A stretch of 64,000 nucleotides of DNA from Polyangia bacterium (lineage in GTDB: Bacteria; Myxococcota_A; Polyangia; Fen-1088): NCBI GenBank assembly GCA_036494575.1, contig DASXOE010000092.1, forward strand, positions 1,732-65,731, given 5' to 3'. A program made the position numbers and the translations under genes. The notes beneath the pieces were generated by a model. The model had not been told where the DNA came from. It searched no databases and saw nothing but the letters and a program-made list of their open reading frames with translations. Positions 988-35,728 of this stretch are shown piece after piece. Position 1 is the first letter of the stretch, and each line of letters begins with the position of its first letter.

Positions 988-2820
988 GTGCTAGACGGAA
1001 GGCGCGTGTCCGGTTCGGGGGCCATCGCGTCATTGGTGGACCTCCTCGAGGCGAGCCGCGCGCGCTTCGGCGCACGGCCGCTCTTCGCGACCAAGAAGGC
1101 CCAAGACGGAGCGGCCGCGCGCTGGCAGGAGACGACGTACGAGGGCTTCGGCGCGCTCGTCGATCGCCTGCGCGCTGGTCTGTCGACGCTCGGCGTCGGC
1201 GCGGGAGATCGCGTGGGGATCATCTCGGCCAACCGCGTCGAGTGGGCCGTAGCCGCCTACGCGACCTATGGCCTCGGCGCGGCCTTCGTGCCCATGTACG
1301 AGTCGCAGCTCGAGAAGGACTGGGCCCACATCGTGCGCGACTCGGGCATGAAGATCCTCTTCGTCTCGAGCCCCGCCGTGCGCGACAAGGTCGCGCCGCA
1401 CGTGGCCGCCATCTCGACGTTCGAGCAGCTCGTGCCGCTCTGGGACGAGGCCGCGGTCGCCACCTTCAATTCGCTCCTCGCGGCGCGGCCGCCCGTGCCC
1501 GCGGTGCACCCAGCCGGGAGCGACGTCGCGGCGCTGCTCTACACCTCGGGGACCACGGGGGAACCGAAGGGCGTGGTCCTCACGCACGGCAACATCGTCT
1601 CGAACGCCCTCACGCTGCGCGAGCTCATCCTCGCGACGGAGACGGCTGAGGACCACCGCTCGCTCTCCTTCTTGCCCTGGGCGCACGCCTTCGGCCACAC
1701 GGCCGAGCTGCACATGCTGCTCGCCTCGGGCGCCTCGATGGCCATCGCCGAGAGCGTCGAGAAGATCGCGGACGACATCAAGGATGTCAGGCCCACGGTG
1801 CTGTTCGCCGTGCCGCGCGTCTTCAACAAGATCTACGCGGGCGTGCAGCGGCTCATGGCGCTCGAGAGCGCCCCCATCCGCTGGCTGTTCCGGCGCGGCC
1901 TCGCCGCCGCTCGGAAGCGTACGCGGCGCCAAAGGCTCGGGCTCGGCGAGCGCCTCGTGCTCTTCCTGGCCGACGAGCTCATCTTCTCCAAGGTGCGCGC
2001 CCGCTTCGGCGGCCGCCTCAAGTTCGCCATCTCGGGCGCCGCCTCGCTCGCGCGGGAGGTGGCGGAGCTCATCGACGCCATCGGCATCGCCGTCTACGAA
2101 GGCTACGGCCTCACCGAGACGAGCCCCATCGTCGCGGCCAACGTGCCCGGACACCGCAAGATGGGCAGCGTGGGCCGCGTCCTCCCCGGCGTGCGCGTGG
2201 CGATCGACGGCGCGCTCACGGGCGATCCGGGGCAGGGCGAGATCGTCGTCTACGGCCCCAACGTCATGCGCGGCTACCACCGGCGCGACGACGAGACGCG
2301 CGCCGCCCTCACGTCGGACGGCGGCCTCAAGACCGGCGACATGGGCTACCTCGACGACGATGGCTACCTCTTCATCACGGGCCGCTTCAAGGAGCAGTAC
2401 AAGCTCGCGAACGGCAAGTACGTCGTCCCGTCGCTGCTCGAGGACAGGCTCAAGCTCTCGCCCCTCATCGCCAACGTCATGATCTACGGCGACAACAAGC
2501 CCTACAACGTCGCGCTCGTCGTTCCGAGCGGCGAGGGGCTGGGCGACGCGCGGGAACCGGGGCGGATCCGCAAGAAGCTCGAGGACGAGATCGCGCGGCT
2601 GTCGGAGGAGTTCAAGCGCTACGAGCGCGTGCGGGCGATCGTCGTCCTCGGCGAGGACTTCACGCAGGAGAGCGGGATGCTCACGCCGTCGCTGAAGTTA
2701 CGGCGCCACAATATTTTGCGACGGTGGCGGGGGGAGCTGGACGGGCTTTATGGGGCGGAGGAGTGCGGGATCGAGGCGGTGGCGAAGGGACGCGGTTCCG
2801 CGGCTCAGTCTCCTGACTGA
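988..2820 (+). CDS. long-chain fatty-acid--CoA ligase (ANL/AMP-binding superfamily, FadD-like)
   Basis: Contains LYTSGTTGEPKGVVLTH (AMP-binding P-loop), GYGLTETSP and TGDMGYLDDDGYLFITGRFKEQYKLANGKYV, the typical acyl-CoA synthetase motifs. GTG start at 988. Confidence 0.9.
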   Translation: MLDGRRVSGSGAIASLVDLLEASRARFGARPLFATKKAQDGAAARWQETTYEGFGALVDRLRAGLSTLGVGAGDRVGIISANRVEWAVAAYATYGLGAAFVPMYESQLEKDWAHIVRDSGMKILFVSSPAVRDKVAPHVAAISTFEQLVPLWDEAAVATFNSLLAARPPVPAVHPAGSDVAALLYTSGTTGEPKGVVLTHGNIVSNALTLRELILATETAEDHRSLSFLPWAHAFGHTAELHMLLASGASMAIAESVEKIADDIKDVRPTVLFAVPRVFNKIYAGVQRLMALESAPIRWLFRRGLAAARKRTRRQRLGLGERLVLFLADELIFSKVRARFGGRLKFAISGAASLAREVAELIDAIGIAVYEGYGLTETSPIVAANVPGHRKMGSVGRVLPGVRVAIDGALTGDPGQGEIVVYGPNVMRGYHRRDDETRAALTSDGGLKTGDMGYLDDDGYLFITGRFKEQYKLANGKYVVPSLLEDRLKLSPLIANVMIYGDNKPYNVALVVPSGEGLGDAREPGRIRKKLEDEIARLSEEFKRYERVRAIVVLGEDFTQESGMLTPSLKLRRHNILRRWRGELDGLYGAEECGIEAVAKGRGSAAQSPD

Positions 2821-3073
2821 GCCCGCATAGCGAATCCGTCAAAGAGCTAAATGAAACTCGACAGTTGAGGTGCGATGTCGCCCCCCGCTGGCGGCTCCGC
2901 TTCCGGGGCTGTGAGGGGAATGATTCCGTCAATGGCGATTTGGCGCCCGCGTGACATAAGGTCTTGAGGCATCATCCCTCACCGCTCTGCGCCGACCTGT
3001 TCTTTCTCATCGGCTCGGTACAAAGGCTCGAAGAGACCGGTCTGGGTTCAACCTGTAGACTGCGAAGCACTCT

Positions 3074-4279
3074 ATGTTCCTGACAAATCCCGCACCTTCG
3101 ACGTTCATCCATCGCGTTCAGGTGAAGAACTATCGCAGCATCGCAGCGTGCGATGTACAGCTCGGTGCGCTCACGTTCCTCGTCGGACAAAACGGTTCTG
3201 GGAAGAGCAACTTCCTAGATGCGCTTCGATTGACGGCAGATGCGCTCGTTCAGACGCTTGATCACGCGCTTCGAGACAGGGGAGGCATTGCAGAAGTTCG
3301 CCGCCGGTCAGGAGGACATCCGACCCATTTCGGGATTCGCCTCGACTTCTCGTTGCCGGACGGCCAAGCGGGTCACTACGCTTTTGAAGTAGGTGCCCGG
3401 CAAGGCGGCTCGTTTGTGGTCCGGGTGGAGGAGTGCGGGGTTGGGTCGCACTCGTATCGTGTGGAGGACGGCAATGTCGTTCGCTCATCGATGGCGACGC
3501 TTCCTGCGGCCAGTGAAGACCGCCTGTATCTCGTTACAGCTTCCGGTATCGCCGAGTTCCGAGCGGTGTACGACGCCCTATCGATGATGGGTTTCTACAG
3601 CTTGAACCCCGCAGCGGTACGCGCTCTTCAGACACCAGATCGTGGCGAGATCTTGAAACGAGACGGTGCAAACTTGGCCAGCGTTGTTGAGAGGATTGCT
3701 CACGCAAACGGAGGAGCTCTCCAGCAGAGAATTGAGGAATATCTCGCTCAGGTTGTGCCAGGGATCGAGGGAGTGGAGACCAAGAAATTTGGGCACATGG
3801 AGACGATCGAATTTCGCCAGCGCGTACAGGGAGCCGACAAGCCGTGGCGATTCCCTGCCATCAATATGTCTGATGGCACTCTGCGCGCTCTGGGCATATT
3901 GGTGGCGCTTTTTCAAAAGCCGGAACGCGGCAGGATTCCTCTGGTCGGGATCGAGGAACCGGAAGCGGCCCTTCACCCAGCCGCCGCAGGAGTCTTGCGG
4001 GATTGCCTCCGCGAGGCTAGCCGAAATACGCAGGTTATTGTGACGAGCCACAGCCCCGACCTCCTCGACGATCGCGACTTACCCGAAGATTTCCTCCTGG
4101 CTGTCGTTTCCGAGTTGGGTACAACGCACATCGGTCGGGTTGACGAGGTAACTCGATCCGCGTTACGCGAACACCTCTTCACGGCCGGAGAGTTGCTCCG
4201 TTCGGATCAGTTGCGGCCCGGCGATACGGCCAGGCGCACACCTGAACAGCTCCGTCTCTTCGATGGTTCGGCGCCTTGA
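3074..4279 (+). CDS. ABC/SMC/OLD-type ATPase (AAA_15/AAA_21-like)
   Basis: Walker A GQNGSGKSN near the N-terminus, Walker-B-like LVGIEEPEAALHP, and H-loop-like VIVTSHSPDLL. ATG start at 3074. The gene is visibly more A/T-rich than flanking genes. Confidence 0.85.
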   Translation: MFLTNPAPSTFIHRVQVKNYRSIAACDVQLGALTFLVGQNGSGKSNFLDALRLTADALVQTLDHALRDRGGIAEVRRRSGGHPTHFGIRLDFSLPDGQAGHYAFEVGARQGGSFVVRVEECGVGSHSYRVEDGNVVRSSMATLPAASEDRLYLVTASGIAEFRAVYDALSMMGFYSLNPAAVRALQTPDRGEILKRDGANLASVVERIAHANGGALQQRIEEYLAQVVPGIEGVETKKFGHMETIEFRQRVQGADKPWRFPAINMSDGTLRALGILVALFQKPERGRIPLVGIEEPEAALHPAAAGVLRDCLREASRNTQVIVTSHSPDLLDDRDLPEDFLLAVVSELGTTHIGRVDEVTRSALREHLFTAGELLRSDQLRPGDTARRTPEQLRLFDGSAP

Positions 4280-4842
4280 GACTGGGCTCAATCGTGGAAG
4301 GACATGGAGAGGTCCGAGCACTCCCAGTACTTCTCCGTCGTCTGTTGCCGGCGACTATAGAACTGCTTCCTCCCTTTCGTGTTCCGCGTATGCGCATCGT
4401 TAAGGACGGCGAACTCGAACGCACCGTCGAATTGGTGGCACGACAGGTTGGGCCCGGCGGCGCGATCCTCATCTTGCTCGACGCAGACGACGACTGCCCG
4501 GCGACGCTGGGCCCTCAATTGCGAGCACGAGCGCTCGCTCATCGATCTGATCGCCTTGTGTTCGTCGTGCTGGCCAAGCGAGAGTTTGAATCATGGTTTA
4601 TAGCGGCGGCTGAATCTCTCGCCGGAAAAAGAACCCTTAACACTGTCTTGCCATGGGTGCCCGAGCCCGAGAATATCCACGGGGCAAAGGAGTGGTTAGG
4701 GGTGAATATGGCGCCCGAGCGAGGCTACTCAGAGACGTTGGATCAGCCTGCGTTTGCCGCGGAAATGGACATCGAGATGGCCGCGCGAGCACCATCCTTT
4801 GCAAAGCTACTGAAGGATCTGAAAGGGTTGACCCCTGACTGA
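4276..4842 (+). CDS. DUF4276-like protein with TOPRIM-type acidic motifs
   Basis: The TTG start overlaps the ATPase stop (TTGA at 4276-4279). Has N-terminal IVEGHGEVRALP and central ILILLDADDDCP (TOPRIM-like Glu and DxD), then VLAKREFESWF. This pattern is as I remember the DUF4276 family that pairs with AAA_21-type ATPases. Confidence 0.7.
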   Translation: MRLGSIVEGHGEVRALPVLLRRLLPATIELLPPFRVPRMRIVKDGELERTVELVARQVGPGGAILILLDADDDCPATLGPQLRARALAHRSDRLVFVVLAKREFESWFIAAAESLAGKRTLNTVLPWVPEPENIHGAKEWLGVNMAPERGYSETLDQPAFAAEMDIEMAARAPSFAKLLKDLKGLTPD

Positions 4843-5706
4843 CTCTGTGGGAAGAGGCGCCGATCGAAAGGTTGTTCTTCTTTGCGTGTGCCCCGCGCGG
4901 TCGTTCAAAGAGGCGCCGAGGGCATCGGCGATCTTCATGACGGTGGACAGCTTGATGTCGGCTTTCCGTCGTGAGCGAGGCCTTGCAGATGCGCTTGAGC
5001 TTTTTCGGAGCGTCGCTGTACCAGAGGCTGCCCGATTCGTCGAAGGCGAAGCCGGCCGTGCCCGTCGAGACGTTGTCGACGAGCGCGTCGGTGAGATCGG
5101 CCGTGGTCATTTCTTGGGCCGGCGTGAAGTCACGAGCTCGTCGAGGAAGCCCACCCAGAGGTTCACGGCCTGGTCGAACGCGACGCCATTCGGGTGGTCG
5201 TAGGTCGAGGCGACGGGGCGCCTGCGGGCGTCTTCGGGCCGAGGATGACGTCGGGAGGCGCCATCGTCGACGCGCGGAGGTGCGCGGGCGTTTGAAACGC
5301 ACGGCCTTGCCCGGCGAGCGCCACTGCGGCGCGCACGCTCCAAGACGTGTTGCTCCTGTATCCTCTCGAGCAGCCCTTCGATCAATGGCGTTCTCGCCGC
5401 GTCGTCGATCGCAAAAAAACGTCGACGTTGCATGACGACGCGCCGTGATGCACAGGTCCGTATCTTCATCGCGTAGCCGAGATACGGTCGCTGGGTATCT
5501 CGCGCTCAATGGGGTACGGAATGCCCCGCCAATCTCGCGACGGTCTCGCGCTTGCACAAGGCGCCGCGTTGAAAGACCCAGCGCAAAGCCTATCGTTCGA
5601 AACTGTGTGCTGGTCGACGGTGAGCAAAACCTTTGACGGATATGTCGAGAGCGCGCACTAACCGGTTGAATCGCACGTCGGTACTTTTGCGGCGAGGACA
5701 AGGGAC

Positions 5707-24788: not shown

Positions 24789-26150
24789 TCAGTCCTTCGC
24801 GGAAGCTTGCGCCGACAGACGACGGCCGACGGTCCGATCGAGGGCGAGCCAGGCCCGATAGCACGCGAGCCGCAGGTCGACGTAGGTGCTGCGGCTGCGC
24901 AGGATGACGTCCTCGGCCGTCGTGAGCGCGACCACGTCCAGCTGACCGCCGGCGACCGCCGCCGCGAGCAGCTTCTCCTGGGCGGCGAGATCGGGCAGCA
25001 CCTGCGCCTCGTAGCGGCGCAGCGTCTCGCCGCGGAGCGCGATCTCGTCGCGCGCGCTCGTGAGATCGCGCCGGATGCCGCCCACGAGCTTGGCGAACGC
25101 CTCGCGCTCCTGATCGCGGGTGGCCTCGGCGATCTGGATGGGGCCGCCGTTGAGGTTGAGGATCGGCACCGTGAGCTCGAGGCCGGCCGAGAAATCGCTC
25201 GGGTGCACATCCGAGCCGTCCGAGCGGTAGCGCGGCATGGCCGTCAGGCGGAACCAGGGCCAGCGGCGCGCCATCTCGAGGCGCACGGTCTCCTCGCGCT
25301 GGTGGTAGCGGCGCTCCTCGGCCGCGAGCGCCGGGCGCGTCGCGAGCGTGGCCTCGACGAGGGCGTCGAGCGCTGGTGGCGGGCTCGTCTCGGCGCCCAG
25401 CCGCCCGGCGACGTCGCGCGCGGGCGTCGTCCCGAGGAGCAGCCCCAGATCGGCGGCCGCCCCGATCTGCTGCGTCGCCAGATCGTCGCGCTCGCGCTCG
25501 ACCTCGGCGACGGCCAGCTGCGCGAGGCCGAGGTCGAGCCTGGTCGACGCGCCACCCGCGAGGCGCTTGCGCACGAGGTCGAGGATGCGCCGGCGCGTCT
25601 CGAGATCCTTGTCGACGAGCGCGCCCTTCTCGCTGATGGCGAGGAGCGTGGCGTGAGCGGCGCGCACGGCGGTCGCGACCTGCCACTCGGCTTCGGCGAT
25701 GTCGGCTTCGACGGCCGCCGCGCCCGCGCGCGCAGCGGCGCGCCCCGCCGCGTAGATGCCGGGCTGGGGCGGCGCCCAGCCGAGCGTGATGGCCCAGCCG
25801 ACCTGCGAGGGCCAGTCTTCCAGATGAATCATGTCGAAGCCCACGGTGGGGTTGGCGAGCGCGCTCGCCGCCACGATCTGCCCCTCGGCGATGCCGCGCT
25901 GTTGGCGCGCGGCGCGCAGGTCGGGGTTCCCGCGCAGCGCGAGCTGGACGGCGGCGTCTTCCGTCAAACCCGCGGGTGGCGTGAGCGCGGGGCGGGAGCC
26001 GGGCCCCGGGGCCGCGCCCGCGGGCTCTCGCGCGAGGTCGTTCATGACGGCGCGCGCGTCGAGGGGCCGCGGCTGGTAGCAGCCCGCGGCGAGGGCGAGC
26101 CCGAGCAGCGTCGGGCCCGCCGGCGGACGCCCGCGCCCGGCGCGGCTCAT
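24789..26150 (-). CDS. TolC-family outer-membrane efflux lipoprotein
   Basis: The preferred ATG at 26150 overlaps the upstream stop (ATGA at 26147-26150). Lipobox LALAAGC. Has the OEP-type opening LTEDAAVQLALRGNPDLRAARQQRGIAEGQ and a two-fold coiled-coil repeat organisation. Confidence 0.85.
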   Translation of the reverse strand: MSRAGRGRPPAGPTLLGLALAAGCYQPRPLDARAVMNDLAREPAGAAPGPGSRPALTPPAGLTEDAAVQLALRGNPDLRAARQQRGIAEGQIVAASALANPTVGFDMIHLEDWPSQVGWAITLGWAPPQPGIYAAGRAAARAGAAAVEADIAEAEWQVATAVRAAHATLLAISEKGALVDKDLETRRRILDLVRKRLAGGASTRLDLGLAQLAVAEVERERDDLATQQIGAAADLGLLLGTTPARDVAGRLGAETSPPPALDALVEATLATRPALAAEERRYHQREETVRLEMARRWPWFRLTAMPRYRSDGSDVHPSDFSAGLELTVPILNLNGGPIQIAEATRDQEREAFAKLVGGIRRDLTSARDEIALRGETLRRYEAQVLPDLAAQEKLLAAAVAGGQLDVVALTTAEDVILRSRSTYVDLRLACYRAWLALDRTVGRRLSAQASAKD

Positions 26151-27157
26151 TTGGCCCCCGGCGCGGGCAGCGGCCAGCGCGTCCACAGAGGAGGCCCGGT
26201 GTTCGCGTCGAAGACGATGACGATCTCGCGGCCGTCCTTGGCCAGCGTCACGCCCTCGGGGTGAAGGCCCGACCATTGATGCACGAACGTCACCGCGCCC
26301 GTGGCGGGGGCGTACCAGTAGAGCGAGCCGCCGCCGTCCTTCTCGCGGCCCTTGGGCGAGTTCGCGAGCACGGCGAGCCGTCCGTCGGGCAGGCTCGTCA
26401 AATCGGCGATGCCCTCGGGGATGCCGCCCGCGTCGCCGCGCAGCGGGAGCTCCCAGTGCCGCGTCACCGCGCCGGGCGGCAAACGGCCCGCGCGCAGCGC
26501 CTCGACCGGCGAAGCGAGGCGCAGCACGACGGCGCCACCCGCCGCCGTGAGCGGCGACTTGAGGCCGACGAGTAGCGCGTCATCGCGGTACGTGATGGCC
26601 TCGATGTCGAGCCGGCCGTCCGGAGGCAGCCCCGCGATCGACAGCAGCGAGCCGCCGCCGTCGGCGGCGCGCGCCGTCGTGAGATCGGCGCGGCCGAGGA
26701 CGCGCAACGCGCGGCCCTCGAGGCCGAGCAGCAACAGCATGTCGCGCGGCGCGCGCTCGCGGCCGCGCTTGTTGAGCGAGTGCGAGGTCGTGAGGAAGAA
26801 GCGCCCGCCCGGGGCCGCGCAGATCGACTCGGCGTCATTGAGCGCGTCGACGCCGAGCAGCGGCACGGGCGTCTCGTCGAAGGCGCCCGCGACGCTCATG
26901 GCGAGCACCCAGGGCTGGTGATGGTCTCCAGCCTGGCCGGTGTCGTCGCTCACGACGAGGTATCGGTCGAGCGCGGTGGCCCACACGACCCCCGACGGCT
27001 CGAGCGTCGCCGAGCGCCGCGCCAGCCCCTCGGGCACGGCGATGCGCGTCGGCGCGGGCGGCGCGACGGGCGCGGCGGTCGCCGCGATCGGCGCCACGGC
27101 GCAGGCCGCGCACAGCCACGCGAGGAGCGGCGGCAGGGCCCGCTCAGAAACGAACAT
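26147..27157 (-). CDS. exported hypothetical protein, beta-propeller/phytase-like repeats suspected
   Basis: ATG at 27157 (MFVSERALPPLLAWLCAACAVAPIAATA signal). Recurrent blade-like motifs: LEPSGVVWATALDRYLVVSDD, EAITYRDDALLVGLKSPL, EGIADLTSLPDGRLAVLANSP and PEGVTLAKDGREIVIVFD. It overlaps the HlyD gene end by 14 nt. Confidence 0.65.
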   Translation of the reverse strand: MFVSERALPPLLAWLCAACAVAPIAATAAPVAPPAPTRIAVPEGLARRSATLEPSGVVWATALDRYLVVSDDTGQAGDHHQPWVLAMSVAGAFDETPVPLLGVDALNDAESICAAPGGRFFLTTSHSLNKRGRERAPRDMLLLLGLEGRALRVLGRADLTTARAADGGGSLLSIAGLPPDGRLDIEAITYRDDALLVGLKSPLTAAGGAVVLRLASPVEALRAGRLPPGAVTRHWELPLRGDAGGIPEGIADLTSLPDGRLAVLANSPKGREKDGGGSLYWYAPATGAVTFVHQWSGLHPEGVTLAKDGREIVIVFDANTGPPLWTRWPLPAPGAK

Positions 27158-28172
27158 GCACGGCCTCGCCGAGCACGAGGGGACGCGACGGCCAGCTCTC
27201 GATCTCGACACGCCGGCCCCAGGCGGGGACCTGCGGCGCGACGCGCGCCCGGATGGGCACCTCCTCGATCTCGGGCGCGATGGCGGCGACGCGCCCGTCC
27301 CAGCGCCCGCTGAAGAACGCCTGCCCGCGCAGCCGCACGGCGCGCCCCACCTCGACCTTGGCGATCTCCCGCTCCGGGACCCAGCACAGCACGCGGCCCG
27401 GCCGGCCGGTCGCGATGCGCACGAGCTCGGTCGCCGCGGGGACGACGTCGCCCGCGTGGTGCAGGATGAGCGAGACGACGCCGTCGGCGCGCGCGCGCAC
27501 CGTCGCTTCGTCGAGCGCGAGCTGCGCGAGCTTGACCGACTCCTCGCTCATGCGCGCGGCCTCGCGCAGCGGCGCCAGGCGGCGGTCGAGGTCGGAGGCG
27601 GCGGTCGCGCCGCCCTGGGTCCGGCCGAGGCCGGCGCGGCGCGCCTTCGTGGCCGAGTCGAGCACGGCGAGGCCGGCGTTCAGGCCGGCCTCCTTGAGCT
27701 TCTCCTGCTCGACGTCGCGCGCCTGGACGAGCTGCTCGCTCTCGAGCTTCTGGAGTCGCTCGAGCTGGCGGTGGACCTCGGCGAGCTGCGCGCGGTCGCG
27801 CGTCTGAGTCGACTGCAGACGCAGCACGAGCAGCTCGGCGCGCGCCGTCGCCGCGATGGCGACGACCTCCCCGGCGCCGAGCTCGGCCTGGGCGCGCGCG
27901 AGCGCGAGCCGGGACGTCTCGAGCTGAATCTGCAGCGCTTTAGTGTCCATGACGGCGACGACGTCGCCCGCCTTGACGGCCTGGCCGATCTCGACGGCGA
28001 CGCGGTCAACGCGCCCGGCCGCGAGTGTCGCCGCGGGCGCGTCGATGTCCTCCGTGTAGCCGCGCGCGCCGAGCGTCCCGGCGGCGCTGCCGCCGTGGGA
28101 GAGGACCCAGAACAAACCGCCCGAGGCGGCGATCGCCAGCGGGGCCGCGATGCGTGCGCGCGAGCGCGTCAT
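27144..28172 (-). CDS. HlyD-family periplasmic adaptor (membrane fusion protein)
   Basis: N-terminal TM anchor (IAAPLAIAASGGLFWVL) and a lipoyl-like hairpin (GRVDRVAVEIGQAVKAGDVVAVMD ... ADGVVSLILHHAGDVV). A long coiled coil lies between them, followed by a C-terminal beta-barrel segment. Confidence 0.85.
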   Translation of the reverse strand: MTRSRARIAAPLAIAASGGLFWVLSHGGSAAGTLGARGYTEDIDAPAATLAAGRVDRVAVEIGQAVKAGDVVAVMDTKALQIQLETSRLALARAQAELGAGEVVAIAATARAELLVLRLQSTQTRDRAQLAEVHRQLERLQKLESEQLVQARDVEQEKLKEAGLNAGLAVLDSATKARRAGLGRTQGGATAASDLDRRLAPLREAARMSEESVKLAQLALDEATVRARADGVVSLILHHAGDVVPAATELVRIATGRPGRVLCWVPEREIAKVEVGRAVRLRGQAFFSGRWDGRVAAIAPEIEEVPIRARVAPQVPAWGRRVEIESWPSRPLVLGEAVHVRF

Positions 28173-28196: not shown

Positions 28197-28850
28197 TCAT
28201 GGCTCAAGCGACGAGTCCTGCATGAGAAGGGTGGCGCCCGTGAGGCCCGGCAGCGCGTTGAGCTCGCGCAGGAGCGCGGCCCCCGCCTTGGGATCCGCGA
28301 ACTGGACCTGGTACGAGTGCTCGTAGATGCCGTGCCCCGCCTCGCGGAGGTTCACGAGCAGGAAGCGCCGGCAGTGCTGTTCGAGCAGCTCGACGAAGGC
28401 CCGCTGCTCGGGCGAGCTCGCCGGCATGCGGATGCGCAGCACTGCGTCCGACTGGCGGTGCGTGCCGAACGACGTTACGTGCAGGAACCCGACGGCGGCG
28501 GCGAAGACGCCCGTGCCGATCACGGCGACGGCGTAGCTCTGCACGCCGCAGGCGACGCCCGAGGCCAGACCCGCGAAGACGAACATGAGATCGCGCGTGT
28601 CCTTGATCGTCGTCCGGAACCGCACGATCGTGAGGGCGCCCACGACGCCGAGCCCGCGCGCGACGTCGTCGCCGATGGCCAGCATCACTGACGCCGAGAT
28701 GATGCCCCCGAGCGCGAGGCTCTGGGTGAACCCGCGCAGGTAGGACAGGCCGGCGTGCGTCGCCGAGTACAACCAGGCGACGACCACCGAGAGCGCGAAT
28801 GCGAGCGAGAGCGAAGCGAGGGCCGTGTCCCAAGCGATGCGTTGTTCCAC
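28197..28850 (-). CDS. DUF4956-type integral membrane protein
   Basis: The GTG start at 28850 directly abuts the VTC stop codon (TAG at 28851-28853). Has about four hydrophobic segments, the hallmark GALTIVRFRTTIKDTRDLMFVF, and a ~80-aa soluble C-terminal domain. Confidence 0.75.
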   Translation of the reverse strand: MEQRIAWDTALASLSLAFALSVVVAWLYSATHAGLSYLRGFTQSLALGGIISASVMLAIGDDVARGLGVVGALTIVRFRTTIKDTRDLMFVFAGLASGVACGVQSYAVAVIGTGVFAAAVGFLHVTSFGTHRQSDAVLRIRMPASSPEQRAFVELLEQHCRRFLLVNLREAGHGIYEHSYQVQFADPKAGAALLRELNALPGLTGATLLMQDSSLEP

Positions 28851-29747
28851 CTAGTCGGTCTCCCCCGCGAGGTCCCAGGCCATGGCGTCCACCATGGGTT
28901 GATCGAGCAGCGTGCGCACGGCGGCGACGTACTTCGAGTAGCCCACGCGCCACATGTCGAGCCGGTTGACGAGGTGATTCATCCAGGCGGGCGCGACGCG
29001 CGGAAACTTGAGCTCAATCATCGTGTGGGCGCCATGTTGTCCGTGCTGGTCGTAGCCGTCGATGGGGATCCAGCCCTTGGGATCGCCGTGCAGCGACCAG
29101 CCGCGCGCGCGCTGGAAGCAGATCTCGCGGTCGAAGGTCAGGCGAACGTCCTCGCGCGGATCAGCCGTGCAGTACGACTCGCGATGCGCCCGCACGAGCA
29201 CACACGGCCGCGCGTCGGTGACCGTCTGGAGGTAGAGGAACGTCTCGAGGTGCCGCCGCTCGTCCCACGGCAGGCTGGCCGGCAAGGCGTCGTAGGTGCC
29301 CTCGAGGAGCGCGGCGGCGTCCACCATGGCGACGGCCGAGCGGGTCTTGACGGTGATGGCGTTGATCTTGCGCTTGGTCTCGAAGAAGGCCAGGTTGCCC
29401 GGCACCTCACCGTAGGCGCGCACGCGCAGCTTGTAGCGGTCGGCCGCCCCGTCGACGTGTGTCTGGTACGCGTCGAGGCGCGCCGTCTCGAGGTAGAGCG
29501 TCGTGTTGTACTGCTGGAGCAACCCGTCCCTGACGTTGAACGGGTCGACGACGAGGTACGGCCGCGCGTACTCGACGACCTCGCCGCAGATCTCGGTGGG
29601 CACCCAGTATTTGAGCTCGAACCGATCGAGCTCGCGCGCGTGGAAGTCGACGATCGCCCTCGAGAGGAGCTCGTCCTCCTCTCGGGTGGGCGCCGCGTCG
29701 GTCGCGCCGCGGGCGGCCGACCACACGAGGGCGAGCTTCGAGCTCAC
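28851..29747 (-). CDS. VTC-domain (polyphosphate-polymerase-type, CYTH-like triphosphate tunnel) protein
   Basis: The GTG at 29747 overlaps the upstream stop (GTGA at 29744-29747), with GGGAGG just upstream. No signal peptide. Tunnel-strand motifs present: RFELKYWV, TTLYLET, KLRVRAYG, FFETKRK, VKTRSAV, RESY, RLTFDREI and MIELKF. Confidence 0.75.
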   Translation of the reverse strand: MSSKLALVWSAARGATDAAPTREEDELLSRAIVDFHARELDRFELKYWVPTEICGEVVEYARPYLVVDPFNVRDGLLQQYNTTLYLETARLDAYQTHVDGAADRYKLRVRAYGEVPGNLAFFETKRKINAITVKTRSAVAMVDAAALLEGTYDALPASLPWDERRHLETFLYLQTVTDARPCVLVRAHRESYCTADPREDVRLTFDREICFQRARGWSLHGDPKGWIPIDGYDQHGQHGAHTMIELKFPRVAPAWMNHLVNRLDMWRVGYSKYVAAVRTLLDQPMVDAMAWDLAGETD

Positions 29748-31912
29748 GGGCCTCCCGTGTCGCTCGAGACATCCGAGCCGCGCCCCGGGTAGGGACGCGC
29801 CTGCTTGATGTAGAGCGTCGCCGGCTGGCCGGGCGCGGCCTCGTCGTCGAACTTGAACTCGCAGTCCATGGCGTAAAACCCGTTGTTGCCGGCCGCCGGC
29901 CCATAGGCGGCGGCGAAGCGCGTGTGGATCGCGTCGAGCGCGACACCCAGCTGGTGCGTCTGCGTCGTCGTGAGCACGGCGGTCGAGATGAGGTTGGAGT
30001 GCGCGATGAACGTGATGGGCTGGTTCGGCTCGTTGAAATAATAAATGAACTGATCGCTCGTGACGCCGGCGGGCGGATGCACGACCTCGGCGTCGCCGCC
30101 CGCCTGGACGTTGACGTAGAAGGCCGGGTCGAGCCCGCTGTCGTCGAAGGGGTTGGACGTGATGGCGACGCCGTTCGCCTCCTCGTCGGCGAAGTTGTGG
30201 TGAACGAGCAGCGCCATGCCCACGGCGTTGTGGTCGATGCCGTAGTAGCTGCGCTCCTCGAAGGTGCGGAAGAGCCACGCGCTCGCGTAGGCCTCGCGGA
30301 TGGCGTCGAGCACCGACGGCCATTTCGCCGGATCGCCCGTATGCGACTCGTAGCAGCCCGCGCACGGGAAGCCGTCCAGGTCCTCGCTGTTCGTGCTCGT
30401 GCGGAAACGCATGGTCGTGCCCGGGTAGTCCGCCGCGAGCTTCGCCATGAGGGTGGTCTGGAAGGCGGCGTCGATCGGGGCCGCGAGCATCGCCGTACGC
30501 AAGTCTGTGAGCTTCTGCTCCCGCACCGTGGCGTCGCTGCTGAACGCGGGGTCCGCGATGAGCGCCGTGACGCGGTCGTAAAAGCCGTTCTGCTTCATGA
30601 ACTGGTCGTAATAATAGATCGGAATTGCAAACGCTTTGAGGATGGGGACGTCCGGAGTCCGGACGAGGATCGAATATTGTGCCGCCTTGCCGCCAAAGGC
30701 CTGTACGGAGGTCTTGATGGCGTCACGAAGAGAACCGCCCGCCGGGGGCTCGGGCGTGACGTCCTCGACGTTCGTCAGCGCGGTCACGTCCAGGTTCACG
30801 AGCGGCAGCGTGATGGGGGCCGGCTTGTGCGCCGCCCAAAACGCCTCCGCGTCGGCCTCGGTGACCTCGCGCACGCTCCAGGCCGAAGCCCCGACCTGCA
30901 GCTCGACCAGCTTTCCCTCTAGGGCGCGGAGCTCCGGGTTCGTCACGGCGTTGCGCAGCCCCATGTTCGGCGTGTGGCGATTGGCCGACAGGACGTTGAC
31001 GTGCGACAGCGGCGTCTGGAACTCCTGCGTGATGAGACCCTGCACGACGGTGATGTCGTTGGGCGCCTCGTCGAGGACGGCGATGTCCTGAAAGGACAGC
31101 GTCGCCGTGTCGAGGTTGGCCGTCTGGACGAAGCGCAGGCGGCCGATCCCCGAGGCGAGCGTCAGCGGCTGGTAGTCGATCTTGGCGTAGAGGTCGTCCG
31201 TCGTCGCGATCTTGACGGCGGCCGGAAGGAGCTTTGCTTGCTGGCTCACGGCCTCGGACGTCGGGTGCACGACGAGGGCCGGGCCGAAGAACGCCTTGGC
31301 TTTGACGGCGTCGTAGAGCGTCTGGATCATGGCGGCCGAGGCCGTGTCGTAGGGGGCGAGCTCGAGCGCCCAGACGTCGGGCTCCTCGTAGTAGGTGACC
31401 GCGCCCAGGATGAACCGCCGGTCGGGTTTGTAGTACTCGGTGGCGTTGAAGTCGGCGAGGGCGCCGACGATGGGGAGCCCGTTCCCCGACAGGTGCGTCG
31501 ACGCGAACTGGTAGTGGACCTGGTAAAGGACGCTGTTCTGGAAGTAGATGGCGTTGCCGTCCGCCTGGTCGAGCACGACCTTGACGGAGCGGGCGCCCGG
31601 CAAGCTGACGTCGAGCGGCGCCGAGGCGAGCGCTTGGAAGTCAGAAGTGCAGCCGATCTCGCGCAAGAACTGGGTGGCCGAGGCGGCCTTCGCGCCCGCG
31701 TCGCCGGTGTCGCCGGCGTCGCCCGCAGCGTCGGCGTCGGCGTCATTTTGGCCGGCGTCCAAGACACCGCCCGCGTCGGCGGCGATCTGGCAGACACCCT
31801 CGACGACGACTGGCTTGGCGGGCGCCGTGGCCTTGCCGCCGCCGCAGCCGACCAGCGCGCCGAGCGCGAAGGCGAGCCGAGTGAGCCGGTCATGCCGAGG
31901 AATCGTCGTCAT
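29744..31912 (-). CDS. lipoprotein with PEP-utiliser swivel-His-like domain followed by PPDK_N (PEP/pyruvate-binding ATP-grasp) domain
   Basis: The ATG at 31912 overlaps the upstream stop (ATGA at 31909-31912). Lipobox LGALVGCGGG. The central DIAVLDEAPNDITVVQGLITQEFQTPLSHVNVLSANRHTPNMGL resembles the phosphohistidine mobile domain. The C-terminal FGGKAAQYSIL ... RFRTSTNSEDL ... MALLVHHNF ... ANGVAITSNP is PPDK_N-like. Confidence 0.75.
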   Translation of the reverse strand: MTTIPRHDRLTRLAFALGALVGCGGGKATAPAKPVVVEGVCQIAADAGGVLDAGQNDADADAAGDAGDTGDAGAKAASATQFLREIGCTSDFQALASAPLDVSLPGARSVKVVLDQADGNAIYFQNSVLYQVHYQFASTHLSGNGLPIVGALADFNATEYYKPDRRFILGAVTYYEEPDVWALELAPYDTASAAMIQTLYDAVKAKAFFGPALVVHPTSEAVSQQAKLLPAAVKIATTDDLYAKIDYQPLTLASGIGRLRFVQTANLDTATLSFQDIAVLDEAPNDITVVQGLITQEFQTPLSHVNVLSANRHTPNMGLRNAVTNPELRALEGKLVELQVGASAWSVREVTEADAEAFWAAHKPAPITLPLVNLDVTALTNVEDVTPEPPAGGSLRDAIKTSVQAFGGKAAQYSILVRTPDVPILKAFAIPIYYYDQFMKQNGFYDRVTALIADPAFSSDATVREQKLTDLRTAMLAAPIDAAFQTTLMAKLAADYPGTTMRFRTSTNSEDLDGFPCAGCYESHTGDPAKWPSVLDAIREAYASAWLFRTFEERSYYGIDHNAVGMALLVHHNFADEEANGVAITSNPFDDSGLDPAFYVNVQAGGDAEVVHPPAGVTSDQFIYYFNEPNQPITFIAHSNLISTAVLTTTQTHQLGVALDAIHTRFAAAYGPAAGNNGFYAMDCEFKFDDEAAPGQPATLYIKQARPYPGRGSDVSSDTGGP

Positions 31913-32925
31913 GGCGTCAGCGAGAAGCAGAAAAAGCCGCCGTACCCGCCACCCGCGCCCACCGTGATCGTTCCCTTGGGCGGGCCTCCCATCTCGACGA
32001 GGTTGACGCCCGGCGCGCAACCCGCCTCGTCGAGAGCAGACATCCAGCCGACGCCGCTCCCCTGGCGCGGCCACGAGTGGCCGACGCGCGGCTTCCCCTC
32101 CGTGCCGGTCGCGGCCGTCCAGTCTGCGCACGTCGCGGTCGCGCCGTAGAGCTGCCCCATGTTGTTCGTGCCCGTGAGGAAATCGTGGTTGTCGACCTGG
32201 CCCTTCGTCGGATCCGGCGCGTGGTTGGGAACGCCGTCCTCGTTGGGAAAGTCATTGGCGATCGCGGGATCGGCGTTGTGCGGGCGATCGAAGAGCAAGT
32301 CGGCCTTCGTGAGCGCGAACGTGCGCCCCAGCCGGTCGTACCAGGGCCCGTTGCCGACCCGATCGACGGCGTTGACCTGCTTGCCGTCGTCTCCTTTGAC
32401 CGCGCTCAGGAAGGCGCGCCATGGCTTGCCCCCGGCGCCCGGCATGCTCGTCTCGGCGATCGCCGCGCAGATCTTGTCGGCGCCGCGCAGGCCGGCGCCC
32501 GCGCCGGTTTCGCCGAAGCGGAGGTCGCCGCCGAAGCCGACGTCACTCTTCGAGAGCGCCTGGAGCGCCGCGAGGCTCGTGACGAAGAAGCTGAACTTCG
32601 CCGTCGGGATCGCCGTTTCCGCGCCGACGTCCGCGCGCGCGTCCACCGGATCGACCCCGCCACCCGCGCGCCCGCTCGCCGCGCCGGCCAGCCCGCTCGT
32701 TCCGCCGCCCGCGCCCGCGCCACCCGCCGCGCCGGCTGCGCCCATGGAGCCGGCGGCGCCTGCGGCGCCGCCCGTTCCGGCGGCCTGCATGCCCGCCGCA
32801 CCCGCCGCGCCTGCGCCTCCCGTGGCACCGCCGCCGCTGGGTCGAGAGGTCGCGCCTCCGACGCACGCGGCCGGTACGAAGAAGCCCATGCTGACCGAGA
32901 ACACGATGCTGAGATTCCGGCTCAT
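31909..32925 (-). CDS. DUF1554-like (lectin-fold-like) lipoprotein, paralog A
   Basis: ATG at 32925, lipobox-like VPAACVGG, and a Gly/Ala-rich linker. The core FSFFVTSLA...GGDLRFGE...GADKICAAIAETSMPGAGGKPWRAFLS...GNGPWYDRLGR...NEDGVPNH...GGGYGGFFCFSLTP is clearly homologous to the 36948-37946 product. Confidence 0.7.
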   Translation of the reverse strand: MSRNLSIVFSVSMGFFVPAACVGGATSRPSGGGATGGAGAAGAAGMQAAGTGGAAGAAGSMGAAGAAGGAGAGGGTSGLAGAASGRAGGGVDPVDARADVGAETAIPTAKFSFFVTSLAALQALSKSDVGFGGDLRFGETGAGAGLRGADKICAAIAETSMPGAGGKPWRAFLSAVKGDDGKQVNAVDRVGNGPWYDRLGRTFALTKADLLFDRPHNADPAIANDFPNEDGVPNHAPDPTKGQVDNHDFLTGTNNMGQLYGATATCADWTAATGTEGKPRVGHSWPRQGSGVGWMSALDEAGCAPGVNLVEMGGPPKGTITVGAGGGYGGFFCFSLTP

Positions 32926-32960: not shown

Positions 32961-34016
32961 CTACTTGCATTGCAGATCCGTCTGGCAGGTTTGCCCGGTC
33001 GGGCAGTCGCCATCCGCCGTACAGGACGTGAGCCCAGGTATCTGGACATTGCGGTCGAGGGACTCCGACAGCTCGAGCTCGACGCGCCCCGGGGCGATGA
33101 GGGTCGAGCCCACGGAGATGCGCGTGAACGTGAACGACGGGTAGCCCGCGTAGCCGAGGTTCAAGAGCTGTGTCACGAGCGCCGCCGAGATCGTCAATGA
33201 GCCCGAGTCGGCGGCGTCGCAGTCGATCTCGCCCTTGAGCCCGCCGTGGTGGCTGATGTCCACCCGCAGGTGAACGGTCGACGTGGCGCCCGCGCCCGCC
33301 GCCGCCCAGGTCAACGTGAAGCTCTGGTTCTTCTCGAGGGTGAAGACGTTGCCCGTGAGCGCGAGCGGCGCGATGCCCTTGGCGTGGGTCGAGAACGGCC
33401 CGTACGCGCCGCCCGTCGCCGAAACGGCGATGTCATCTCCTTCGGCAAACGGTGGGTAAGCCGGCGTCTGATCGGCCGGCGGCTGATACGTCTTGTTGAC
33501 GTACGTCAACGTGAGCGGGGGGGCGCCCGCCTGCTTCGCCACGCCAGTCAGGGTCACGGCGCCGACGTCTTGGTTGGTTCCGTAGCTCGCGCAGGTGTCG
33601 TCGGCCACGCAGACCCCTTGTCCGCACGACGTCGCGCAGAAAGGAACGTGCGGCTTGAAAAGCGCGCAGTCGCCGTCCTTGGCGGCCTGGACGAGCGGCA
33701 CCATGACCGGATCCGCGTGGTCCTTCACGCTGCCGATGATCGCCGTGTAGGCCGGGCTGCCGTTCAATGGTTCCTTGAGCGCGACGACGAACGTTCCGAC
33801 GACGGCGTTGCCGTCGCCGGACGTCGCGCCGTCGTTGGACGCCATCGCGCCAGCGGCCCCGTCCATTCCCGCGCCCGTCGCACCCGCGGCACCGGCGGCC
33901 GGGCCTGCTCCAGCGCCCCCAGAGCAGCCCGCGCCGACCGTCCACCCGGCGAAAAGGATGGCGGCGAGGATTCCCTTCCCGGCGCGGGGAAGAGCGTCAC
34001 AAAAGGCGGGTGACAT
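32961..34016 (-). CDS. hypothetical lipoprotein
   Basis: ATG at 34016. Lipobox TVGAGCSGG, a Gly/Ala linker, a ~270-aa beta-rich domain, and a Cys-rich tail CTADGDCPTGQTCQTDLQCK. Confidence 0.65.
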   Translation of the reverse strand: MSPAFCDALPRAGKGILAAILFAGWTVGAGCSGGAGAGPAAGAAGATGAGMDGAAGAMASNDGATSGDGNAVVGTFVVALKEPLNGSPAYTAIIGSVKDHADPVMVPLVQAAKDGDCALFKPHVPFCATSCGQGVCVADDTCASYGTNQDVGAVTLTGVAKQAGAPPLTLTYVNKTYQPPADQTPAYPPFAEGDDIAVSATGGAYGPFSTHAKGIAPLALTGNVFTLEKNQSFTLTWAAAGAGATSTVHLRVDISHHGGLKGEIDCDAADSGSLTISAALVTQLLNLGYAGYPSFTFTRISVGSTLIAPGRVELELSESLDRNVQIPGLTSCTADGDCPTGQTCQTDLQCK

Positions 34017-34148: not shown

Positions 34149-34667
34149 CTAGAGGTTGGCCTTGCCCTCGGTGGGGGTCGTCCGGACGAAGCTGCCGGTC
34201 CCGTCGGGCAGGCGCCCCCACGACTTGTCGGCGGGGACGTCGGTCCCGAAGATCGTCGAATCGATCTCGGTGCCGCTCCGGTCGAGGAGGTGAACCTCGT
34301 CTCCTTTTTTCGAGCTGAGCTTCCACGGCACGTGCACGCCGCCGTCGACGCCGCCGTCGGCCTGGTCGTCCGCGTAAATGACGAGGTAGCCGCCAGCGTC
34401 GATCGACGCGCCCCCCGGGAGCGCGAAGAGGTCGGCGAGGGCCTGGTCGCGCACGCGGTAGCCCGACAGGTCGACGGCCGCGCCCGTCAGATTCTTGAGC
34501 TCGACCCAGTCGGGATCGGAGACCGACGTTCCGTTCGGGAACGCCTCGTTGATGACGACGGCCTTGCCGGCCGTGCCGTTACCCGCGTCCTGCGTGCCCG
34601 AGGCGCTCGAGCAGCCCGCGCCGCAGCCCAAGGCGATCGTGATGACAGCCACCGCCAGCCTGCTCAT
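34149..34667 (-). CDS. lamin-tail-domain (LTD) lipoprotein
   Basis: ATG at 34667 with lipobox ALGCGAGC. VVINEAFPNGTSVSDPDWVELKNLTGAAVDLSGYRVRD ... GGYLVIYAD ... GDEVHLLD is the classic LTD pattern. Confidence 0.8.
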   Translation of the reverse strand: MSRLAVAVITIALGCGAGCSSASGTQDAGNGTAGKAVVINEAFPNGTSVSDPDWVELKNLTGAAVDLSGYRVRDQALADLFALPGGASIDAGGYLVIYADDQADGGVDGGVHVPWKLSSKKGDEVHLLDRSGTEIDSTIFGTDVPADKSWGRLPDGTGSFVRTTPTEGKANL

Positions 34668-34735: not shown

Positions 34736-35728
34736 TCAAGGCCACAGGGGCACCACCGTGCCGTCGCGGCGCACGACGGCCGCCGCGGCCGTGGCGCCGC
34801 GCGTGATTCGGAGCAGGGCGCCATCCGAATACCCGACGGCGTACGACATGCCGACGTCGGCGAGGAACAAGCGGCCGCCGTAGCGCGCGGCGAGCTCGCC
34901 CTTCGCGCGCGCACCTAGAACGTCGCCCGGAAAATCGAGCGCGCCGGGGTCGTGGCCGAACACGACGTGCTGAGCCGGCAGGGCCGTGAGGTTGTCCTCG
35001 ACGCGGGCCGTGGCGCCGGCGTCGCCCGCGTTTTGCCACCATGCATTGGCCTCGAGGATGCTGCCCATGCCGACGAGGAAGTCGTCGCCGTACCCGCTCG
35101 CGCCCTGGACGGCGTTGCGAAACTTCTTGCCGATCGAGGTGACGCTCAGCCCGTCGCTGTCACCCGAGTGGCAGAAGAACCAGTCGTCGATGAGCGCCGC
35201 GACGGGCAGGTTGCGCAGCCACGCGCCGTACGGCGCCGCGCCCGCGGCGACGGCGGCGGCGTCGAGCCCGGCGGTGGTCAGCTCGGCCTGGAACACGGCG
35301 GTCTTCGCGTCCGAAGGGCTGGCGAGGAACTCCGCCTCGTGATTCCCCAGCGTCACGATGACGCCGCCGCCCGCGGCGCGCGCCGCGGGCTCGAGCGCGA
35401 TGAGCAAGTCGATGATGGGCAATGCCGAGGAGCCCTTGTCGATCACGTCGCCCGTCACGACGAGGATCTTCGCGCCTCCTTTCCACGCCACGGGCGTTGT
35501 CGTCGTGATGAGCCCTGCGGCGGCGAGCACGTGGAAGGCGGCGTCGGGATCTCCGTGCGGATCCCCGAGGACGTCGATCTCCTGGGCGCCGTTCATCGTG
35601 ACGACGGCGGGGTGCGCCGACCAGTCGCGCGCGAAGCCGCCGCCGCCGGAGCCGCCGTGGCAGCCCGCGTGCATCGTCGCCAGCATCGTCGCGAGCGCGA
35701 GAGCCTGGATGGACCGAGGAACCTTCAT
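34736..35728 (-). CDS. calcineurin-like metallophosphoesterase lipoprotein
   Basis: ATG at 35728 with lipobox MHAGCHGG. Has the motifs DVLGDPHGD, VVTGDVIDKG, GNHE, FFCHSGD and VVFGHDPG. Confidence 0.85.
   Translation of the reverse strand: MKVPRSIQALALATMLATMHAGCHGGSGGGGFARDWSAHPAVVTMNGAQEIDVLGDPHGDPDAAFHVLAAAGLITTTTPVAWKGGAKILVVTGDVIDKGSSALPIIDLLIALEPAARAAGGGVIVTLGNHEAEFLASPSDAKTAVFQAELTTAGLDAAAVAAGAAPYGAWLRNLPVAALIDDWFFCHSGDSDGLSVTSIGKKFRNAVQGASGYGDDFLVGMGSILEANAWWQNAGDAGATARVEDNLTALPAQHVVFGHDPGALDFPGDVLGARAKGELAARYGGRLFLADVGMSYAVGYSDGALLRITRGATAAAAVVRRDGTVVPLWP

Follow-up and report, generated by a model that had tools for sequence, protein, structure and literature searches.

A putative exported phosphotransferase with the domain layout of glucan, water dikinase in a Polyangia bacterium

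In this study, a stretch of 64,000 nucleotides from a Polyangia bacterium (assembly GCA_036494575.1, contig DASXOE010000092.1, positions 1,732 to 65,731 of the forward strand; hereafter, the window) was analysed, and the gene found at 29744..31912 on its minus strand is the subject of the present report. The product of this gene (hereafter, the target) belongs to a large, strongly conserved bacterial family, which is systematically exported and which shows the domain layout of glucan, water dikinase (GWD). As judged from the sequence and from a structure model, the target is probably an extracytoplasmic His-relay phosphotransferase of the GWD type, present as an outer-leaflet or periplasmic lipoprotein. 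The gene and the parts of its product are given below, with coordinates of the window.

29744..31912, minus strand: dikinase-like lipoprotein gene, 722 amino acids, a putative GWD-like His-domain/ATP-grasp phosphotransferase
31844..31912, minus strand: residues 1-23, signal peptide with an LVGC lipobox, in which Cys23 is predicted from the sequence to be lipidated
31676..31843, minus strand: Asp/Ala/Gly low-complexity tether, residues 24-79, which holds the conserved Cys41; pLDDT below 50 at residues 53-67
31181..31675, minus strand: N-domain, residues 80-244, pLDDT above 90; presumed acceptor-binding or second active site
30818..31180, minus strand: phosphohistidine swivel-type domain, residues 245-365; codon of the candidate catalytic His304 at 31001-31003
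Residues 366-394: linker between the His domain and the ATP-grasp, from the structure model
29783..30730, minus strand: PPDK_N-type ATP-grasp, residues 395-710, from Pfam, PDB profile and Foldseek matches

The open reading frame was found to be real and to lie on the minus strand, with a third-position GC content (GC3) of 0.87, which is typical for the genes of this window of about 70% GC. The N-terminus MTTIPRHDRLTRLAFALGALVGC contained a charged n-region followed by a hydrophobic core and the LVGC lipobox, and the product was found to start as MTTIPRHDRLTRLAFALGALVG-C23-GGG. The LVG-C23 sequence agrees with the lipobox pattern of bacterial lipoproteins, [LVI][ASTVI][GAS]C, and is conserved in the orthologues. 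Cys23 was present in at least 90% of the 20 sequences of alignment A1, and a lipobox-like Cys was present at the same position in 113 of 120 close homologues. The textbook lipoprotein N-terminus described in the first-pass annotation, which had been made from the letters alone, was therefore borne out. That annotation had named two findings that would speak against export, a true start downstream of the lipobox and homologues devoid of the signal peptide. The ATG at 31912 shares an ATGA overlap with the TGA stop of the upstream gene, which fixes the start, and signal peptides were found to be kept across the family. Export by the Tat route was ruled out, since the n-region contained no twin-arginine motif.

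A word-indexed search gave about 1,900 relatives. The best 120 of them were 63-81% identical to the target and were nearly all from Myxococcota (Polyangia metagenome-assembled genomes, Polyangium, Sorangium, Nannocystis, Cystobacter, and Hyalangium); their annotations go no further than "PEP/pyruvate-binding domain-containing protein" or "hypothetical". When 1.84 billion representatives were searched exhaustively with HMMER, 3,223 proteins were recovered at E<=0.001, of which 968 reached E<=1e-30; the family thus contains at least 968 clusters at 50% identity (E<1e-30). The lineages found were Myxococcota, Fibrobacteria, Acidobacteriota-like, Planctomycetes-like, and probably Bacteroidota-like. 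Most of the HMMER matches span residues ~80-708 of the target, and the three-domain core is therefore the conserved unit. A strongly hydrophobic stretch was present within the first 60 residues in 209 of 239 full-length members; most members devoid of a hydrophobic N-terminus were truncated gene calls or an RTX protein. Distant members were found to be fused to LTD, CarboxypepD_reg, RTX nonapeptide repeats, or LRR, and others were embedded in proteins of 2,000-3,200 amino acids with fn3, Calx-beta, cadherin-like, and Ig modules. The lipoboxes, the hydrophobic N-termini, and the extracellular-type fusions make the extracytoplasmic location a family trait and not an accident of annotation, so that the export proposed in the first-pass annotation holds, and the target itself is almost certainly exported. 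Literature searches on an exported PPDK_N/GWD-like family gave nothing relevant.

Among the giant members (P0139, P0203, P0256, and P0269; 2,000-3,200 amino acids), one or two His/ATP-grasp copies were found amid the fn3, Calx-beta, cadherin-like, and Ig modules, and these proteins carried the variant His motif VPQTPLSHVNLRA.QD. The own genome of the target contained a second member of the family (L086, contig C36, ~2140-5185, plus strand), a lipoprotein of ~1,000 amino acids with 35% identity and an N-terminal LTD-like segment; none of the partner genes of the target was found near it.

The structure model was built from alignment A2 (81 diverse sequences) and had a mean pLDDT of 91.1 and a pTM of 0.89; a first model, built from 20 close homologues, had a pLDDT of 61 and was discarded. 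The first-pass annotation had left an N-terminal region of ~250 amino acids unassigned. No Pfam family was found there, and the region was nevertheless resolved into the signal, which forms an N-terminal helix in the model, the tether at 24-79, which is disordered to ~79 and differs in length among homologues, and a folded, conserved domain at 80-244. This N-domain (~165 amino acids) has an alpha/beta fold in the model. It gave no match in Pfam, NCBIfam, or PDB sequence and profile searches, the target and 73 relatives having been searched in the case of Pfam. At a distant AT-rich locus (L087:7958-9979), two tandem lipoprotein genes were found directly upstream of a full-length homologue; the product of each consists of a lipobox, a long Ser/Glu-rich linker, and the N-domain alone (corresponding to ~residues 82-240 of the target). 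These stand-alone copies mark the N-domain as an independent module.

The His304 of the following domain sits within the motif EFQTPLSHVNVL..NR.TPNMGLR, a block which was invariant in alignment A1. In the model, the His domain contained 7 strands and 3 helices, and His304 begins the helix 304-312. GWD1_pHisD (PF22973) was the sole Pfam model that matched the His segment of the target, with a weak match at residues 290-354 (E 0.052). When 73 members were scanned singly, PPDK_N was found in all 73 and GWD1_pHisD in 18 at E<=0.1 (best 4.8e-5), followed by PEP-utilizers in 2 members and each other family in one member only. Foldseek gave weak swivel-type matches to the phosphoryl-carrier domain of pyruvate, phosphate dikinase (PPDK; 2fm4, probability 0.91, E 0.12) and to the pyruvate kinase of S. 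aureus (3t05). In a sub-threshold profile alignment with PDB sequences, the "tpLSH" of the family falls on the catalytic TSH/TCH of three phosphoenolpyruvate (PEP) synthases. On the basis of the GWD1_pHisD matches, the fold of the model, the weak Foldseek matches, and the sub-threshold LSH alignment, we regard the His segment as a true phospho-carrier domain, which in sequence appears nearest to that of GWD.

The ATP-grasp was covered by PPDK_N (PF01326) at residues 405-708 with 69.1 bits, against a gathering score of 27, and its PDB profile matches to PEP synthase and rifampin phosphotransferase (RPH) ranged from E 1e-32 to 1e-24. Its key residues were found to be K409 (GGK), R504/S506 (RTSTNSEDL), S523, E685, and Q704/R706 (KQARP). 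The whole-chain Foldseek search against PDB, a result dominated by the ATP-grasp, was led by RPH 5hv1 (E 9e-15), followed by HpeI, PEP synthase, and PPDK, all matched through this domain. In the PDB sequence and profile searches, only the ATP-grasp was above threshold, and the His domain was seen solely as sub-threshold alignments. No PEP/pyruvate TIM barrel was found in the target, since the protein terminates at the ATP-grasp. The profile mapping and the model thus confirm two earlier observations, the swivel-like His segment ahead of a PPDK_N-type ATP-grasp and the absence of the barrel.

The candidate catalytic His of the PLSHV segment, for which a check of conservation had been proposed, was found to be invariant or nearly so. 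H304, K409, R504, S506, N508, E510, D511, S523, E685, Q704, and R706 were at least 90% conserved in alignments A2 and A3 (73 sequences), in which the mean column identity was 32-33%. The N-domain residues K111, H133, F136, F155, Y160, R165, E184, and D189 were also conserved to at least 90% in both alignments. In alignment A1, Cys41, Cys88, and the RFRTSTNSEDL.GFPCAGCY sequence were invariant. Mutagenesis of RPH-Lm has shown that Lys22, Arg117, and Thr136 position the ATP phosphates and that Glu297 binds Mg (PMC4844700). In the profile alignment, K409 corresponds to Lys22, R504 to Arg117, S523 to Thr136, and E685 to Glu297, and the family motifs at these sites are the Lys of GGK, the Arg of R-S/T-S, the Ser of G-A-G-x-Y-x-S, and the Glu of D-x-E-F/W. 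The phosphate and Mg ligands of PPDK_N domains are thus present in the target as K409, R504, S523, E685, Q704, and R706. The ATP-grasp looks catalytically competent, because the counterparts of the ATP-site residues probed in RPH are all kept. These residues bind phosphates and metal and therefore cannot by themselves tell ATP from another phosphoanhydride donor; the kept phosphate-, Mg-, and nucleotide-site residues appear to fit ATP at least as well as polyphosphate.

Beside the ATP site, the myxobacterial clade contained an invariant C-A-G-C (C517/C520, about 30353-30364) in place of the canonical F-A-G-Q of PPDK_N, where the wider family contained G-A-G-L. This clade-specific CxxC may be a disulphide or a redox switch.

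In the mechanism that we infer for the target, the protein would be exported through Sec/Lol as a lipoprotein, and its C-terminal ATP-grasp would bind a Mg-nucleoside polyphosphate, most simply ATP. His304 on the swivel domain would attack the bound nucleotide and become phosphorylated, and the swivel domain would then swing to the N-domain (80-244), from where the phosphate would go to an extracytoplasmic acceptor. In RPH, an Arg-Glu pair positions the phospho-His, and by analogy the candidate residues of the N-domain site would be K111, H133, R165/R166, E184, and D189. The acceptor could be an envelope or matrix polymer, or the adjacent Cys-rich lipoprotein (partner A, described below). A few points weigh against this mechanism. 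To our knowledge, neither the periplasm nor the extracellular space is expected to contain ATP, and an ATP-dependent cycle is therefore problematic in the envelope. The second half-reaction is purely inferred, since the N-domain matches no recognised fold or family. The GWD1_pHisD score of the target was 13.6 bits, under the gathering score of 27 bits, and the signal peptide of the target was assessed by eye and with a simple script.

The genes around the target were found to encode further lipoproteins, followed by the components of a putative VTC module. In the order of the minus strand, with the target between partner B and the VTC gene, they are as follows.

34736-35728, minus strand: metallophosphoesterase lipoprotein, upstream of the target
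34149-34667, minus strand: LTD lipoprotein, upstream
32961..34016, minus strand: partner A, Cys-rich lipoprotein with a conserved DISHHGG.KG motif; the most constant neighbour
31909..32925, minus strand: partner B, lipoprotein, weakly DUF1554-like; its stop overlaps the start of the target (ATGA)
28851..29747, minus strand: VTC-domain (polyphosphate-polymerase-like) gene, devoid of a signal peptide; its GTG overlaps the TGA of the target (GTGA)
28197..28850, minus strand: DUF4956 membrane protein, which abuts the VTC gene
27144-28172, minus strand: HlyD-type adaptor, downstream of the DUF4956 gene
26147-27157, minus strand: exported propeller-like protein, downstream
24789-26276, minus strand: TolC-like OEP, downstream

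The five consecutive lipoprotein genes are joined via ATGA/GTGA overlaps, and the identical order of ten genes was found in relatives with 80% identity. The adaptor, propeller, and OEP order was repeated in five further loci (L003-L005, L008, and L038) and in more distant ones. Among 85 loci (at least 50% identity in the matched segment), partner A was the neighbour in 72, followed by partner B (59), DUF4956 (26), HlyD (25), LTD (23), VTC (20), the propeller-like protein (19), and the OEP (18). In Sorangium cellulosum So ce26 and Cystobacter fuscus, the partners were present with no VTC module next door, and the idea that VTC is always adjacent was rejected on account of these two loci. From the neighbour counts and from these loci, the core unit consists of partner A, with or without partner B, and the dikinase-like lipoprotein; a VTC module often accompanies this unit but is facultative.

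Partner A (~350 amino acids) contained a C-terminal CPxGQTCQxDLxC repeat, and was 44-47% identical in Sorangium and Cystobacter; its adjacency extended to metagenome-assembled genomes of Fibrobacteria, Thermoanaerobaculia, and Phycisphaerae. No Pfam match was found for partner A or its homologues, all of which are annotated as "hypothetical". In NCBIfam it gave only Myxo_Cys_RPT (TIGR04201) below the cut-off (19.9 against 25 bits) at the C-terminal Cys-rich repeat, and against PDB only one match, at E 0.57. The core of partner B contained FSFFVTS...GGDLRFGE...GLRGADKICA...WRAFLS, which may resemble an endostatin/C-type-lectin-like domain. The metallophosphoesterase lipoprotein was weakly similar to ApaH-type bis(5'-nucleosyl)-tetraphosphatase (NF001204, E 2e-4, far under the cut-off).

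The link to the neighbouring VTC gene, to which the first-pass annotation had drawn attention, stands on the GTGA overlap, which couples the translation of the two genes, on this gene being the only VTC gene of the genome, and on recurrent adjacency elsewhere. The VTC gene and the DUF4956 gene at the locus of the target were each the only one of their kind in the own genome (4.5 Mb, 88% complete), in which no CotH gene was found. Of 121 genomes drawn from across the phylum, 57 contained VTC, 56 contained the family, and 41 contained both; the odds ratio of this co-occurrence was 8.4 (Fisher p 9e-8), a value confounded by phylogeny. A family member was present within 10 kb of VTC in 8 of the 121 genomes, where chance would give ~0.9% per genome (binomial p about 2e-9), and 33 of the 41 genomes with both genes keep VTC elsewhere. 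In at least 11 of these 121 genomes, CotH was found to adjoin VTC. A single contig of another genome of the phylum (G040:C230:15429-24651) contained VTC, CotH, and a GWD-like member of the family, all within 10 kb. A CotH-VTC-DUF4956 trio is present at the pel loci of Gram-positive bacteria (S. intermedius SIR_1592-1594), where deletion of the CotH or the DUF4956 gene lowered Pel-dependent aggregation. Two unrelated folds of exported phosphotransferases thus share the VTC/DUF4956 partner. This recurrent sharing is suggestive of a supply relationship and proves nothing on the chemistry.

In a second reading, the donor would be polyphosphate, or pyrophosphate (PPi) derived from it, and not ATP. 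The architecture would then be the same, with the ATP-grasp binding the phosphate chain and charging His304; the cytoplasmic VTC protein would make the polymer, the DUF4956 protein would bring it across the inner membrane, and the adaptor/TolC-like pair would carry it onward. We consider this donor unlikely. It would account for the overlap of the target stop with the VTC start, for the single VTC and DUF4956 genes in a genome with no CotH, for the presence of DUF4956 and VTC beside orthologues (26 and 20 of 85 loci), and for the proximity in 8 of 121 genomes (p about 2e-9) and the odds ratio of 8.4, together with the exported CotH kinases that also adjoin VTC (at least 11 genomes, and the Gram-positive pel loci). 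The conserved ATP-grasp residues, which are mainly phosphate and Mg ligands, would suit such a donor as well. However, no VTC or DUF4956 protein from bacteria is known to have been characterised, the literature searches on the function of DUF4956 gave nothing relevant, and use of polyphosphate is not known for any PPDK_N-type domain. VTC lies elsewhere in most of the orthologous loci and in 33 of the 41 two-gene genomes, and the co-occurrence statistic is confounded by phylogeny. Alternatively, the target might have kept the dikinase fold without turnover and serve, after export, to bind or sense nucleotides or phosphate polymers outside the cell. An envelope devoid of ATP for sustained turnover and the frequent fusion to adhesion-type modules in the family are in line with such a role; its probability is nevertheless small, as the catalytic His and the counterparts of all the probed ATP-site residues are near-invariant at a mean column identity of 32-33%, and the orthologues are 65-81% identical across myxobacterial families, which suggests that the three-domain machine as a whole, and not a binding pocket alone, is under strong selection.

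PPDK-type enzymes can run their nucleotide partial reaction in both directions, and the target could run in the PPDK-reverse direction, with phosphate passing from an extracytoplasmic phospho-compound through His304 to a nucleotide (AMP + PPi/Pi to ATP), or it could scavenge phosphate. The exported phosphoesterase and phytase-like genes of the same operon would agree with this. It is still very improbable, since the gamma-phosphate is hydrolysed in enzymes of the GWD and RPH types, so that their cycle is in effect irreversible, and our data gave no support for a role in nucleotide synthesis. That the signal peptide is an artefact of annotation and the target an ordinary cytoplasmic dikinase would fit all the characterised relatives, which are cytoplasmic or plastidial. 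This we regard as extremely improbable, given the start codon fixed by the ATGA overlap, the lipobox aligned across 113 of 120 close homologues, the distant members with their own signal peptides or RTX/T1SS (type I secretion system) modules, and the flanking genes, which encode lipoproteins.

All the characterised His-swivel/ATP-grasp dikinases known to us (PEP synthase, PPDK, GWD and PWD, rifampin phosphotransferase, and Hpe kinase) act where ATP is plentiful. The exported family therefore poses a testable question, namely the energy source for phosphotransfer in the envelope and the substrate that is phosphorylated. The VTC/DUF4956 module, with the adaptor and the TolC-like protein, might deliver polyphosphate or another phosphoanhydride to the envelope, where both the CotH kinases and the GWD-like family would use it instead of ATP; the target would then be a polyphosphate-charged dikinase which modifies a surface polymer or the Cys-rich partner. 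We think this quite unlikely. If it were true, double-membraned bacteria would own a means to power phosphorylation outside the cytoplasm; if the enzyme merely uses leaked or prey-derived ATP, it would add a new, exported branch to a type of enzyme already known. The family also provides bacterial relatives for the otherwise plant and algal GWD architecture, and another class of enzymes, separate from CotH, with which the VTC/DUF4956 module can be probed.

Among known systems, the pel locus is similar to the present one in that the gene of an exported phosphotransferase lies beside those of a cytoplasmic VTC protein and a DUF4956 membrane protein. It differs in the enzyme, which has the CotH kinase fold at the pel locus and a GWD-like His/ATP-grasp fold in the target, and in the module, to which an adaptor and a TolC-like protein are added at the target. 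PEP synthase and PPDK contain a homologous ATP-grasp, but in these cytoplasmic enzymes it is N-terminal, followed by a central His domain and a C-terminal TIM barrel. The target scored 56.8 bits against a cut-off of 598 with the PEP synthase model NF005057 of NCBIfam, and 53.2 against 739.75 with TIGR01418, in both cases through the ATP-grasp only, and is not a member of either. RPH-Lm (PDB 5FBS, 5HV1) shares with the target the build of three domains, the swivelling His, and the absence of a TIM barrel, and provides the best structural match of the ATP-grasp. RPH is cytoplasmic, however, and its order is ATP-grasp, RIF-binding domain, and C-terminal His domain; the rifampin phosphotransferase model NF041857 gave 38.5 bits for the target against a cut-off of 999, again with the ATP-grasp only, which places the target outside this family.

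The first-pass annotation had read the order of the target as a novel permutation, on the premise that the ATP-grasp is N-terminal to the His domain in glucan, water dikinases as well. This premise was wrong and the permutation reading was rejected. Potato GWD1 contains a central domain, followed by the His domain (amino acids 931-1050) and the C-terminal ATP-binding domain (amino acids 1069-1387), a linear arrangement which "differs dramatically" from those of PPDK and RPH (PMC13553574), and the order of the target is therefore not new. The finding is more interesting as a family-level puzzle of exported dikinases than as a "permuted" enzyme. Certain features separate the target from GWD. It is a bacterial lipoprotein whereas GWD is a plastid enzyme, and the starch-binding modules CBM45 and CBM20 were absent from the target and 73 relatives in Pfam. 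Its N-domain has ~165 amino acids compared with 444 in the central domain of GWD1, and the structure of the GWD1 central domain was not among the Foldseek PDB matches of the target (PDB entries to April 2026). The target cannot be filed as GWD, because it has no CBM modules and because its smaller N-domain has no detectable similarity to anything known. It would nevertheless work like GWD: in GWD1 and PWD, as in the target, a substrate or central domain is followed by the His domain and by a C-terminal PPDK_N-type ATP-binding domain, neither GWD nor the target has a TIM barrel, and the His domains of GWD1 and the target agree in their number of elements (7 strands and 3 helices) and in the position of the His on a short helix.

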